A DNA stretch of 64,000 bases from Candidatus Woesearchaeota archaeon (GCA_018653365.1 JABIAG010000003.1:128001-192000); one strand, 5' to 3'; counted from the first letter of the stretch, positions 38,660-45,055 are shown. Numbers and translations are program-made. Notes: generated from the letters alone by a model not told the origin.

Positions 38660-39418
38660 TTATTGATTGATTTTTTCTTCTATTTTTTTTAGTAGAAGAT
38701 GGTTTTTGGTCATATAAGCTATAACCCTTAACGGTTCATAAACTGCGTAGAATAAAACAAATATGTCTAATCTATTAATTGTAAATGCAATAATTAAGAT
38801 TACAAATACCCATTTTCTTGGAATGTTTAAAACCAGCATACCTAATTTGAACATGGAAAACTTTTTCTTTTTGTGTTCTGTTACTTTTTCTTTTTCATAA
38901 TTTGCTTTAAATAATGCTGCCTTTTTTAATGTTGAAGCCATCCCAGCCATCATTGTAAAGAATGCAGTAATTCCGCCTGCCAGAATATAAATTGGGTTTC
39001 CAGTGTTTATGAAAACTCCCACGCCTATTCCTAAATAGTGAAGTGTAAACTCAGAGTGGTGGTAGAGGAGTGCGAGATACATTGATTGTATTCTTGTTGA
39101 GGTTTTTCTACATCTTGCCACAACTCCATCGGCATAATCTATGCATTCTGCCACAAATAGCAAGATTATTGCTGTTAACGAGTACCAAAAAGTTCCTGCT
39201 GAAAATAGTCCTGCAGATAAGAATAACACTATTGTTCCAAGAACTGTTACTTGGTTTGCGGTAATTGGGGTGTATAGTAATAATTTGGCGATTACAACAC
39301 CACAACATCTTAGAACAGTATGTTGTATTTTAGTGAAGTTTAATTTTGTATTTCCTTTATTAAGCTCTTCATTCCGGCTAAACCCTTTTTCTATTACTTC
39401 CTTAAAGCTAATGCGCAT
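38660..39418 (-). CDS. CDP-alcohol phosphotransferase family protein with degenerate motif
   Basis: ITANQVT, DYADGVVAR; second half reads SMYLALLYH instead of GxxxDxxxD. Confidence 0.8.
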   Translation of the reverse strand: MRISFKEVIEKGFSRNEELNKGNTKLNFTKIQHTVLRCCGVVIAKLLLYTPITANQVTVLGTIVLFLSAGLFSAGTFWYSLTAIILLFVAECIDYADGVVARCRKTSTRIQSMYLALLYHHSEFTLHYLGIGVGVFINTGNPIYILAGGITAFFTMMAGMASTLKKAALFKANYEKEKVTEHKKKKFSMFKLGMLVLNIPRKWVFVILIIAFTINRLDIFVLFYAVYEPLRVIAYMTKNHLLLKKIEEKINQ

Positions 39419-39455
39419 ATTTTTATCAATTCAAATATGGTTTATAAATTTATCC

Positions 39456-39974
39456 CTAGTTAACCTTTTCTTTCAAGAAGTGCAGTAGTTTTTCTACGCC
39501 CTCTTCAACACTTTCTTTATCCGTTTCTATTACCACATCTGGATTTTCTGGTTCATGATACGGGGTGGTAATTCCAACAAAGTTGTCCCATACGCCCTCT
39601 CTGAACTTTTTATAGTTTCCTTGTGGGTCTCTTTCTTCACATTCTTTGATAGGACATTTTACGTAAGCCCAGTATATTTTATTTCCTGTTTGGATTGCAT
39701 AATCTTTTGATTCCTTTGTTGCTGCTATTGCACTTGCAATGTTGATTATTCCGTTTTTTGTTAGTAAGTGGCATACATTTGCAATGGTTTGTCTTATCTT
39801 ATGACGTTCTTCATCGCTATATCCCAGTTCGGGCAGTACCTCTTTTCGTATTACGTCTGCATCAATGATAACTATCTTTTTCCCTTCCTCTCGTAGTCTT
39901 TCTGCAAGTTTGTCTGCGATTGTTGTTTTTCCTGATCCACTTAATCCTGTTAACCATAATGTAAATGCTTTCAT
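39456..39974 (-). CDS. cysC: Adenylyl-sulfate kinase
   Basis: WLTGLSGSGKTTIA, LGYSDEER, CEERDPQGNY, FVGITTPYHEPENPD. Confidence 0.9.
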   Translation of the reverse strand: MKAFTLWLTGLSGSGKTTIADKLAERLREEGKKIVIIDADVIRKEVLPELGYSDEERHKIRQTIANVCHLLTKNGIINIASAIAATKESKDYAIQTGNKIYWAYVKCPIKECEERDPQGNYKKFREGVWDNFVGITTPYHEPENPDVVIETDKESVEEGVEKLLHFLKEKVN

Positions 39975-40519
39975 TTTGTTCCCCCAATTTTGTTTATTTC
40001 TTCATAAAATTCTGACCAATTATTCACTCGATTAAAACCCTCTTTATCTGTGTTATAAGGCCATGAAAATAAAAACTTATGTTTTACGTTTAAATCCTCT
40101 AGTAATTTTGCTGTGTCATCAATGTACACATCACATTCCTCGCATTTCTCTTTTTTTGAGCGGTCTTGTCCAACTCCTTCAAATAGGATTTCTACACCCT
40201 GTTCTTTTAGCCAAGTTCTAGCAATGTTCAACTTGTTATTTATTCTTGCGGTTACAACGCTTACGTTATGTCCATCTGCAATTAATTTTTTTATTGTTTC
40301 TATTGCTTCAGGTATTGCTTCCATGAATTTGGCATATTTTTCACTACTGGCTACTGTTTCTTGTAGTTCTCTGTAGTGTTCTAGGCTAATGACTCCGTTT
40401 AGTTTTGTTGCGTCACAGTTTTCTAGAGGGAGTTGTTTTCCGTACAGGTCTTCACACACTCTACTTTTTAATTTAGCCGAGTTGTGTATTACTCCGTCAA
40501 AGTCCAGTCCTATTTTCAT
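39971..40519 (-). CDS. HAD-superfamily 5'(3')-nucleotidase-like phosphatase
   Basis: IGLDFDGVI, VVTAR, K, YIDD, PYN, RVNNWSE. Confidence 0.85.
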   Translation of the reverse strand: MKIGLDFDGVIHNSAKLKSRVCEDLYGKQLPLENCDATKLNGVISLEHYRELQETVASSEKYAKFMEAIPEAIETIKKLIADGHNVSVVTARINNKLNIARTWLKEQGVEILFEGVGQDRSKKEKCEECDVYIDDTAKLLEDLNVKHKFLFSWPYNTDKEGFNRVNNWSEFYEEINKIGGTK

Positions 40520-40521
40520 TT

Positions 40522-43339: not shown

Positions 43340-43357
43340 TTTCAAATTACCTCACAT

Positions 43358-43390
43358 AAATGAATGCTTTTATCTAAAAATGAATGCTTT
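43358..43390 (-). promoter_or_regulatory. Candidate operator: 13-bp direct repeat AAATGAATGCTTT, two copies with 20-bp period
   Basis: Copies at 43358-43370 and 43378-43390, between the minus-strand TATA box (43391-43400) and the HTH-pyk start. Confidence 0.7.
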
Positions 43391-43562
43391 ATTTATAAAG
43401 ATTTCCTTTAGATCAAACATTCTTTATTCATTTTTAAGAAAACTCTTTATGGGGCGGTCCATTCTTTGCTTAAAATGAATCGGTTCTATCTTTGGGGGAG
43501 TTCTCTGTTTTAAGAAAAAATGAATCAATACCTTTAAATAACACTTTCCTCTTTTTTTTGTT

Positions 43563-44294
43563 ATGAAAATCTCAAATGCAGAGTTCAAAGAAAAGTGTTG
43601 GAGAGATTTGGATAAGATGACCTTCAGATCTAAACTATTGCGTGTTTTATCTTTGCCAATAACAAAAGTCTTACTTTATTTTCCTGTTACTCCAAATCAA
43701 GTCACTTTTTTTAATATTCTTCTTAACTTTTTACGGTTATGGCTTTTTGCTACTGGTAATGCAGTTAACATTTTAATTGGAGCACTATTGTTAATTTTCA
43801 GTGAAGTTCTTGATCGTGTTGATGGGGGAATCGCAAGGTGTAAGAACATTAAGTCCATGAGGGGTAGTTTTTTTGATGATTCTTTTCATGATTTTTTATT
43901 TTTAACTACATTTATTGGTATTGGTATTGGGGTTTTTGTTAACACAGGTAATTTAATCTATCTTTATTCTGGTTTTATCGTGGGAATATTATTTGTTCTT
44001 GCTCAGAACTTGTTTGCTCATAGAAAGAACATTTTATACAAGAAGTCTTCAGACCCAAAAAAGTATATTTATCGTAAGCTTTTTCCGAAACGTGGATTAA
44101 TTGATCATATCAAACAAGTAATTTATTCTATCTTTCTTTATTTAACTTATATTCTTGTTGTGATGGCCGTGTTGAACTTATGGTTTAATATATTGCATTA
44201 TTATATATTATTTTATGCGGCGTATTCTATCTTCTACTTTTGTGTTAATTTTTACTACTTATCTAGTTTTAAAGAAGATAAACGAGAAAACTAA
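43563..44294 (+). CDS. CDP-alcohol phosphotransferase family protein (last Asp replaced by His)
   Basis: VTPNQVT, DRVDGGIAR...GSFFDDSFH. Confidence 0.85.
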   Translation: MKISNAEFKEKCWRDLDKMTFRSKLLRVLSLPITKVLLYFPVTPNQVTFFNILLNFLRLWLFATGNAVNILIGALLLIFSEVLDRVDGGIARCKNIKSMRGSFFDDSFHDFLFLTTFIGIGIGVFVNTGNLIYLYSGFIVGILFVLAQNLFAHRKNILYKKSSDPKKYIYRKLFPKRGLIDHIKQVIYSIFLYLTYILVVMAVLNLWFNILHYYILFYAAYSIFYFCVNFYYLSSFKEDKREN

Positions 44295-45055
44295 TCGTTC
44301 TTTTTTTCATAAAAGTTGGCTTCCGAATCTTTTTTTAGTGTTTTTATTTGTAATGCAAAGAAAACAATAAATAAGATTGCTAATAATGATATTCCGAGAA
44401 TAAATGCCCAATGAATAAGTTTTAATCCAAAGAATACTGCCAGAATCGGCGCGATAAAGAAGATTATTGCATTTGTTTCTACATCAGTATATCCCAATCT
44501 AATTCTTCTTTTTGAGAGGAATACTTTTACTTTTGAGATTAAAGACCTTTCATTTAGGGTTACTTTTTTCATTAGCACTTTATTACCATTAATTACGTAC
44601 GAGCGTAAATACAATACATGGATCAGTAGTACAATGATTACATAAATTCCTGACAATGCAAGGGTTAGTAGGTTTCCGGTTGCAGAATAAACATAATACC
44701 CTAATGATAGAGATATTCCAATGATCATTAACAGGTCTACAAAAGCATCCGTGATTCTCCCAACGTTAGATTTCAGGTTTTTTAGTTGAGCAACTCTTCC
44801 ATCTACAAGATCAAATATTAAAAATATTTGAGATAGTATTGCTCCAGTAATTAAATGCCCTGTTGCGAATGCAAGTGCGGATGTTAGCGCGAATAAAATA
44901 AAACTTAGAACTGTTATGTTTGTAGGGGTTAGTTTTGTGAAGTTTGCCATAAACCAAATCACTGGCTTGGCGAGGTGCTCAATAAGTAAGACATCCCAGA
45001 TATCATTTTCTTTTTTAAGTCCTTTTTCATTTATTTCTTTGAATGTGTATTTCAT
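44291..45055 (-). CDS. CDP-alcohol phosphotransferase family protein
   Basis: LTPTNIT, DLVDGRVAQ...GRITDAFVD with all four Asp residues present. Confidence 0.87.
   Translation of the reverse strand: MKYTFKEINEKGLKKENDIWDVLLIEHLAKPVIWFMANFTKLTPTNITVLSFILFALTSALAFATGHLITGAILSQIFLIFDLVDGRVAQLKNLKSNVGRITDAFVDLLMIIGISLSLGYYVYSATGNLLTLALSGIYVIIVLLIHVLYLRSYVINGNKVLMKKVTLNERSLISKVKVFLSKRRIRLGYTDVETNAIIFFIAPILAVFFGLKLIHWAFILGISLLAILFIVFFALQIKTLKKDSEANFYEKKND

Follow-up and report, generated by a model that had tools for sequence, protein, structure and literature searches.

A histidine-bearing branch of CDP-alcohol phosphotransferases in a glycan gene island of a Woesearchaeota archaeon

The locus

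The stretch of DNA analyzed here (the window; 64,000 nucleotides, GCA_018653365.1 JABIAG010000003.1:128001-192000) comes from a Candidatus Woesearchaeota archaeon whose genome comprises 1.09 Mb in 3 contigs, is 95% complete and has a G+C content of about 33%. A glycan island occupies 25-55 kb of the window. It contains three genes of the CDP-alcohol phosphotransferase family (CDP-OH_P_transf, PF01066), and these are all PF01066 matches of the genome. Two of the three carry histidine at the position of the fourth aspartate of the family signature. In our analysis this histidine is what a large subfamily normally carries there and not a local oddity of genes that neighbor an operon for 3'-phosphoadenosine 5'-phosphosulfate (PAPS). 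The three paralogues and the genes of this operon, which include those for ATP sulfurylase and adenosine 5'-phosphosulfate (APS) kinase, are the following; the Pfam cut-off for CDP-OH_P_transf is 22 bits.

38660-39418, minus strand: CDP-OH_P_transf paralogue 1, 252 amino acids, 37 nucleotides after cysC; Pfam score 20.6 bits
39456-39974, minus strand: APS kinase (cysC); TIGR00455, 165 bits, above cut-off
39971-40519, minus strand: NT5C-like HAD phosphatase, between sat and cysC
40522-41673, minus strand: ATP sulfurylase (sat); NF003166, 494 bits
41648-43345, minus strand: pyruvate kinase with an N-terminal helix-turn-helix (HTH) domain, the sole pyruvate kinase of the genome
43563-44294, plus strand: CDP-OH_P_transf paralogue 2, 243 amino acids, divergent from the pyruvate kinase operon; Pfam score 44.3 bits
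44291-45067, minus strand: CDP-OH_P_transf paralogue 3, 258 amino acids from GTG at 45067 or 254 amino acids from ATG at 45055; Pfam score 42 bits

All three open reading frames (ORFs) were found with the motifs and the shared segment that the original prediction, made from the bare sequence, had described, and the Pfam and NCBIfam matches likewise bear out the operon of HTH-pyruvate kinase, sat, NT5C-like HAD and cysC. These four genes begin a minus-strand row (43345 to 34644) that continues with paralogue 1, a methyltransferase, a family 4 glycosyltransferase (GT4), a B12-dependent radical S-adenosylmethionine (SAM) protein and a second methyltransferase. Paralogue 3 is the last gene of another minus-strand row (54155 to 44291), which is led by the oligosaccharyltransferase AglB; paralogue 2 is convergent with this row and overlaps it by 4 nucleotides.

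Signature motifs and fold of the three proteins

The family signature D1xxD2G1xxAR...G2xxxD3xxxD4 has eight residues that are described as 'absolutely conserved', and its D4 is regarded as the putative base (PMC4634129). The first half is intact in paralogues 1 and 2, and in paralogue 3 the AR pair has become AQ. The second half is complete in paralogue 3 only, which has all four aspartates (DLVDGRVAQ...GRITDAFVD) and groups in the tree with the half that is Asp-type and AF2299-like. Paralogue 2 is a typical His-type member (DRVDGGIAR...GSFFDDSFH) and reads GxxxDxxxH in this half. Paralogue 1 (DYADGVVAR...SMYLALLYH) reads SxxxAxxxH; Gly2 is replaced by Ser and Asp3 by Ala, and His again stands at the Asp4 position. 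The two His paralogues have the segment IGIGVFVNTGN/IGVGVFINTGN in common. A shift of register by one residue, by which DSFHD would restore DxxxD in paralogue 2, was considered and rejected: among relatives it is the column of the His that is conserved, while the one after it varies, and the subfamily profile puts the His on D4 of AF2299 without a gap.

The Pfam match of paralogue 1 covers the N-terminal half only and lies just under the cut-off. Since the subfamily profile scores this protein at 224 bits, paralogue 1 is a real member of the subfamily.

AF2299 of Archaeoglobus fulgidus (4o6m, 4o6n, 4q7c) is the best match to the window proteins in both sequence and fold and, with 94.7 bits to the subfamily profile (4o6m), the closest solved protein by sequence. 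They share D1xxD2GxxAR, Gly2, Asp3, the Asn/Thr cytosine contacts on the first transmembrane helix (TM1) and the six-helix core, and the form GxWLDGxxDR of AF2299 is common to paralogue 3 and many relatives. Unlike the two His paralogues, one of which also lacks Asp3, AF2299 has Asp at position 4. It further differs by a cytosolic N-terminal domain of about 160 residues (the match begins at residue 174), whereas in the window proteins TM1 is preceded by about 40 residues. The AlphaFold2 model of paralogue 2 is all-helical with a mean confidence (pLDDT) of 93.2, and its top Foldseek matches are 4o6m (AF2299), 4mnd (DIPPS) and 5d91 (PIPS), each with probability 1.0. In this model paralogue 2 has the six-helix membrane fold with juxtamembrane helix that is typical of the family. 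None of the three membrane proteins matched a sulfotransferase profile in the Pfam and NCBIfam scans.

In the family the motif P(D/N)xx(T/S) on TM1 contacts the amine of the cytosine (PMC4634129). It reads PNQVT in paralogue 2 and ANQVT in paralogue 1; PTNIT in paralogue 3 is ambiguous. In the subfamily alignments (42 and 18 sequences) the Asn is invariant and the Thr nearly so. As the cytosine contacts are kept, a cytidine-nucleotide donor is favored.

Conservation and spread of the histidine branch

In an exhaustive profile search 13,929 relatives were obtained, 150 of them below 1e-30; a word-based search gave 3. Residue counts over the 151 nearest representatives in the database show His at position 4 in 123 (81%) and Asp in 7 (5%). 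D1, D2, G1, A and R are conserved to 98-100% and G2 to 94%, and position 3 is Asp in 75% and Glu in 18%. In the 42-sequence alignment N45 and H109 are invariant. The Gln that paralogue 3 has for the conserved Arg occurs in just 2 of the 151. Hence the proposal that the His is a departure special to the neighbors of the PAPS operon has to be given up: it is the norm of the subfamily.

Species-representative genomes were scanned with a pattern from the 18-sequence alignment. His-type genes were found in Woesearchaeota, ANME-2, Dehalococcoidia, Omnitrophota and Scalindua as well as in Eisenbacteria, Patescibacteria, Rokubacteria, Nitrospirae and others. In the literature we found no paper that deals with His-type members of the family, or with CDP-alcohol phosphotransferases in the N-glycosylation of archaea. 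Three very long ORFs of 1783-2258 amino acids, from Eisenbacteria and an unclassified bacterium, also contain a His-type domain (L098:7661-14056, L101:881-6231, L104:8399-15175).

The most degenerate copy, paralogue 1, had been suspected to be a non-catalytic partner, and it might indeed serve as partner or regulator of a catalytic paralogue, a role that would be compatible with the other readings discussed below. The missing Gly2 and Asp3 and the Pfam score below cut-off point in this direction, and one could imagine that paralogues form heterodimers, given that the members of the family with solved structures are homodimers (PMC4634129). Yet the pattern AR[CY]xKxxTxxQSxFLxxxYH, in which Gly2 and Asp3 are lost and the His is retained, is kept in about ten clusters at 50% identity (its second part, QS-x-FL-xxx-YH, in at least 10), which indicates that the paralogue-1 type is under selection in its own right. 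Moreover, in a genome of the same genus (G151) the paralogue-1 type is the sole family member found and adjoins a flippase. As this type is conserved and can stand alone, an obligate role as non-catalytic partner is unlikely, and we consider the proposal weakened and improbable overall.

Relation to sulfate activation

The neighborhood of the PAPS operon had led to the proposal that the His variants use APS or PAPS as donor. The His-type copies would then be membrane sulfotransferases in which the acceptor hydroxyl attacks the sulfur of APS/PAPS and AMP or adenosine 3',5'-bisphosphate (PAP) leaves. The chemistry would be formally analogous to that of the family, with nucleotide-O-P-O-SO3 in place of nucleotide-O-P-O-X.

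We sampled 301 genomes of the phylum. The CDP-OH subfamily is present in 65 of them, APS kinase in 41, Sat-type sulfurylase in 20, Sulfotransfer_3 in 43 and Sulfotransfer_1 in 45. Around subfamily genes 60 loci of 20 kb were fetched, and in 10 of these sat, cysC or pyruvate kinase lies at most 10 kb from the subfamily gene, compared to about 0.5 expected by position. Direct adjacency on one strand is seen four times, in the window, L059, L053 and L025, and in two of the four respective genomes (G223 and G298) no Sulfotransfer_1 or Sulfotransfer_3 gene was found. The link between the subfamily and sat/cysC is real. Furthermore, 8 genomes with sulfate activation and the subfamily have no match to Sulfotransfer_1 or Sulfotransfer_3, the two families searched for (Sulfotransfer_2, Sulfotransfer_4, Sulfotransfer_5 and Stf0 were not searched). 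These observations speak in favor of sulfate transfer by members of the subfamily.

However, the link is not specific to the His type, as position 4 of the linked genes is occupied by His, Asp, Gly, Thr, Leu or Asn. In the tree they fall into at least 6 sub-branches, each with close relatives in genomes without sulfate activation; the paralogue-1 type is an example, as neither sat nor cysC was found in G151. Neither APS kinase nor Sat is present in 44 of the 65 subfamily genomes, and conversely the subfamily is missing from 24 of the 45 genomes that have sulfate activation. Nine genomes have sulfate activation with neither the subfamily nor a detectable Sulfotransfer_1 or Sulfotransfer_3 protein, so that other, undetected consumers exist. 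The odds ratio for co-occurrence with APS kinase is 4.6 for the subfamily and 19.9 for conventional sulfotransferases, both to be read as descriptive figures because related genomes are not independent. A conventional sulfotransferase is encoded in the same locus in 5 of the 10 linked loci (G111, G127, G207, G214, G241), and in G011 and G084 it directly adjoins the subfamily gene.

The genome under study has such an enzyme as well. That no sulfotransferase is recognizable holds for the window but not for the genome: on contig 1 a protein of 296 amino acids (L006:1465-2355), which adjoins an RfaE-II-like nucleotidyltransferase, matches Sulfotransfer_3 with 39.8 bits (cut-off 27) and Sulfotransfer_1 with 29.9 bits (cut-off 22). 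The argument from a missing sulfotransferase thus fails upon whole-genome search. In addition, contig 1 contains a PAPS-reductase-family match, and PAPS may be put to assimilatory use. PAPS-dependent sulfotransferases of the Sulfotransfer_1/3 type are likewise found near genes for PAPS synthesis in glycan islands, but they have no relation in sequence or fold to the three membrane proteins. In the subfamily, moreover, the Asn and Thr that contact the cytosine vary little or not at all. We therefore regard sulfate transfer by the His-type proteins as very improbable, although the association with sat/cysC is not absent. The narrower version, in which only paralogue 1, which is co-transcribed with pyruvate kinase, sat, HAD and cysC and has lost a metal ligand, would be an integral-membrane sulfotransferase using PAPS, appears just as remote.

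The phosphatases of these loci also suit ordinary chemistry. APS kinase is fused to a CysQ-like protein of the inositol-monophosphatase family in L022:1141-2454 and L047:1642-2964, and L053:10496-11347 is a separate CysQ-like gene. Fusions and neighbor fit an ordinary sulfotransfer that releases PAP, and this is a further point against a sulfotransferase function of the subfamily. Because relatives have CysQ in the equivalent slot, the HAD protein of the window (39971-40519) is a candidate PAP phosphatase, possibly non-homologous to CysQ.

Two other observations concern the sulfate activation genes. In several loci a pyruvate kinase barrel is fused to PUA_2 and ATP sulfurylase (748-772 amino acids) and in one case also to APS kinase (870 amino acids); these are L034:3531-5777, L049:12300-14564, L028:1945-4263 and L059:6343-8955, whereas the pyruvate kinase of the window is separate. 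Across the phylum sample, frames of 739-922 amino acids contain 13 of the 21 Sat matches and come from 12 of the 20 genomes with Sat. The second observation is a family of proteins of 424-464 amino acids with a weak NTP_transf_5 match and a thymidylate-kinase-like P-loop part (L053:16140-17438, L059:3076-4470, L051:7411-8739, L042:11387-12661). Its genes lie within a few kb of Asp-type or Gly-type subfamily genes, and two of these four share their locus with pyruvate kinase, sat and cysC, where the 20 kb fetched include no Sulfotransfer_1/3 gene. This family could be a divergent kinase or a sulfotransferase-like enzyme.

The glycan island and candidate donors

Besides the genes listed above, the island contains the following features.

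27886-28575, minus strand: NTP_transf_3 nucleotidyltransferase of the PhnDCE module
28615-29415, minus strand: PhnE-like permease of the PhnDCE module
29419-30192, minus strand: PhnC of the PhnDCE module
30225-31106, minus strand: PhnD; TIGR03431, 273.8 bits, above cut-off
31131-31532, minus strand: HxGH-type cytidylyltransferase-like gene, the first of the co-oriented PhnDCE module (27886-31532)
33147-34643, plus strand: Wzx-like flippase (Polysacc_synt)
34644-35162, minus strand: methyltransferase, downstream of paralogue 1
35138-36694, minus strand: B12-radical SAM protein, downstream of paralogue 1
36681-37841, minus strand: GT4, downstream of paralogue 1
37775-38581, minus strand: methyltransferase, downstream of paralogue 1
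within 45073-54155, minus strand: GT2 with DUF2304, three GT4, GT9 and a methyltransferase, after AglB and upstream of paralogue 3
51282-54155, minus strand: AglB/STT3 oligosaccharyltransferase, 957 amino acids, a sign that the DNA is archaeal, heading the row upstream of paralogue 3

In this island of AglB, glycosyltransferases and flippase the modification of lipid-linked glycans, which had been predicted from the start, is the most likely function of the three membrane proteins. The neighbors of other subfamily genes are of the same kind. The immediate neighbors were tallied in 61 loci. These 122 genes include 17 methyltransferases, 14 Wzx flippases, which are among the commonest, and 12 GT4. 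A further 8 are NTP_transferase or NTP_transf_3, 6 asparagine synthase, 5 radical SAM, 4 CTP_transf_like and 3 cytidylate kinase genes. Several subfamily paralogues per locus are common.

Upstream of the island, positions 21349-27885 hold more envelope genes, for a polysaccharide deacetylase, a FemAB/GNAT-like protein, a GT2 and a PMT_2-like GT-C glycosyltransferase, together with a protein of 760 amino acids that has no family match and is kept in the same-genus genome. A protein of 260 amino acids at 32284-33066 has no Pfam or NCBIfam match; homologues of it adjoin the PhnD module of L095 and, in L022, stand between the CDP-OH genes and cysC-CysQ. Homologues of the B12-radical SAM protein of the window adjoin subfamily genes in Dehalococcoidales and other Woesearchaeota (L079:10789-12288, L085:10798-12300, L018:7022-8548, L024:7223-8734); its best NCBIfam matches, all below cut-off, are BchE, HpnJ and the PhpK-type P-methyltransferase.

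The gene inventory of the genome narrows the choice of donors. As neither a CDP-archaeol synthase (CarS) nor a geranylgeranylglyceryl phosphate (GGGP) synthase was found in the 95%-complete genome, CDP-archaeol is an unlikely donor. CDP-inositol was rejected as unlikely in the same way, since no inositol-1-phosphate synthase was found in the genome. The absence of these enzymes, like that of the phosphoenolpyruvate (PEP) mutase mentioned below, is consistent with a host-dependent lifestyle.

The absence of CarS and GGGP synthase, together with the fact that the three genes are the only PF01066 genes, could be taken as a sign of Kennedy-type head-group synthesis, in which phospho-alcohols are transferred from soluble CDP-alcohols onto diether lipids scavenged from the host, in replacement of the CDP-archaeol route. 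Soluble CDP-alcohol donors are used by AF2299-like enzymes and by the eukaryotic choline and ethanolamine phosphotransferases (CPT/EPT; PMC11696302). But a core membrane function is not expected of a subfamily that is present in only 65 of the 301 related small genomes. Its genes, moreover, lie among flippases, glycosyltransferases, methyltransferases and AglB, and several paralogues per locus are typical of variable surface-glycan islands. We consider head-group synthesis improbable.

A donor other than a classical CDP-alcohol had also been suggested, with CMP-phosphonate as an example. Synthesis of phosphonates by the archaeon itself was rejected as unlikely, since no PEP mutase (PF13714) match was found in the 95%-complete genome. 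The PhnDCE importer could supply the phosphonate instead, and PhnDCE with its two nucleotidyltransferases fits a candidate route by which a phosphonate or phosphoester is imported and activated. The module recurs beside subfamily genes in two other genomes, at L065:4319-10398 and L095:2182-7944, and in L065 an NTP_transf_3 gene directly precedes the subfamily gene. A non-classical donor is thus plausible, though hardly one that starts from an endogenous PEP mutase.

A different route is suggested by bacterial loci. In L097 (Omnitrophota; 4350-10816) an APS-kinase-like gene, a GDSL-like gene and a gene for an 801-residue PEP-utilizing protein are followed by Peptidase_C26/GATase, NTP_transf_3 and then the His-type gene, and L092 and L103 (Scalindua) match this layout in gene sizes and order. 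The cassette mirrors the Campylobacter Cj1415-Cj1418 route to cytidine diphosphoramidate (the O-methyl phosphoramidate cassette), with a different transferase. Because of this likeness, the donor in the Omnitrophota and Scalindua loci may be a phosphoramidate. The product of Cj1415-Cj1418 is a 3'-phosphorylated nucleotide donor that resembles PAPS, and the position of His-type genes behind such an APS-kinase-like cassette would also suit a sulfotransferase. In L081 (Omnitrophota) a flippase, sat and two genes without assigned role are followed by a His-type gene. What these loci have in common is a glycan island with a membrane transferase and, beside its gene, the means to make or import a small group that is nucleotide-activated. 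In its broad form the proposal would be that the AF2299-like His branch as a whole attaches small groups to glycans and takes donors beyond CDP-alcohols. That at least one paralogue of the window uses a donor of the CMP-phosphonate type or a phosphoramidate, beyond CDP-alcohols, is a tentative proposal, which we hold to be possible but on the unlikely side.

Comparison with known transferases

For a histidine as base there is a precedent in the family. In the eukaryotic enzymes CPT1 (of yeast), CHPT1 and CEPT1 the CDP-alcohol donor is soluble and the acceptor membrane-bound, and a signature-motif His paired with a Glu (Glu114-His118 in yeast CPT1) has been proposed to deprotonate the acceptor (PMC11696302). 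These proteins differ from the window proteins in that the His stands next to Asp3, one residue past it and not at position 4, all four Asp are kept, the number of helices is 10 and the match is weak (24-33 bits). With regard to gene content, a parallel is FtaABCD of C. difficile, where a nucleotidyltransferase, a possible methyltransferase and a transferase for the phospho-group act in the decoration of a glycan via CDP-threonine (10.64898/2026.02.12.704994). A similar logic is seen here, with methyltransferases and nucleotidyltransferases among the commonest neighbors. The transferases of FtaABCD and of teichoic acid synthesis (TagF) are, however, soluble or peripheral TagF-like proteins, unlike the integral-membrane PF01066 proteins.

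Proposed mechanism

The most likely interpretation of these data is that the three genes encode AF2299-like six-helix membrane CDP-alcohol phosphotransferases which would bind a cytidine-nucleotide-activated donor via Asp1, Asp2 (and Asp3) and a metal. A phosphoryl-linked group would be passed to a hydroxyl and CMP released, as is predicted also with a view to the nucleotidyltransferases and cytidylate kinase among the neighbors. The His at position 4 probably takes over the role of the base and deprotonates the acceptor hydroxyl. In an archaeon that apparently makes no CDP-archaeol, the acceptor is most likely a dolichol-linked or other lipid-linked glycan, and its decoration would occur at the cytoplasmic face, ahead of flipping and of transfer by AglB. 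The added groups may be small phosphodiester-linked or phosphonate-linked moieties, with the two nucleotidyltransferases around the PhnDCE importer as candidate makers of the donor. The PAPS of the adjacent operon is most likely consumed by the conventional soluble sulfotransferase; the final glycan would therefore be both sulfated and phospho-decorated.

Family membership, the motif pattern, the conserved His, the gene context and the co-occurrence figures are direct observations, whereas donor, acceptor and the role of the His as base are inferred. We assign a probability of roughly 0.6 to a reaction in which His is the general base, CMP is released and a lipid-linked glycan receives a phospho- or phosphono-linked group. 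Several points weigh against it. To our knowledge neither donor nor acceptor is established for a single member of the branch, AF2299 included. The best NCBIfam matches of the two nucleotidyltransferases are to RfaE domain II and to GlmU/AglF-like proteins, all below cut-off, and both enzymes could serve the activation of sugar or heptose instead. The proximity to sat/cysC in 10 of 60 loci, the same-strand abutment in four loci and the two abutting-locus genomes in which the sulfotransferase search came out negative, all described above, belong here too. Paralogue 1 lacks Asp3, a metal ligand. In related archaea His, Asp, Gly, Asn, Ser, Thr, Leu, Ile and Val are all seen at position 4; from this variety it would follow that the base is located elsewhere or that some members are not enzymes. 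Finally, the exchange of D4 for Asn nearly abolishes the activity of a PIP synthase (PMC4634129), and a working His at this position is therefore an assumption.

Implications

A branch in which His is the normal residue, which occurs in several phyla and lies in glycan and not in lipid clusters, breaks the rule of an absolute signature in the CDP-alcohol phosphotransferase family and suggests that the membrane enzymes which decorate glycans include a class not yet explored. With regard to ultra-small archaea unable to produce lipids themselves, it suggests a way in which phosphate, phosphonate and, separately, sulfate come to be on the glycans of the surface. Such charged groups on the glycans may matter for attachment to the host.

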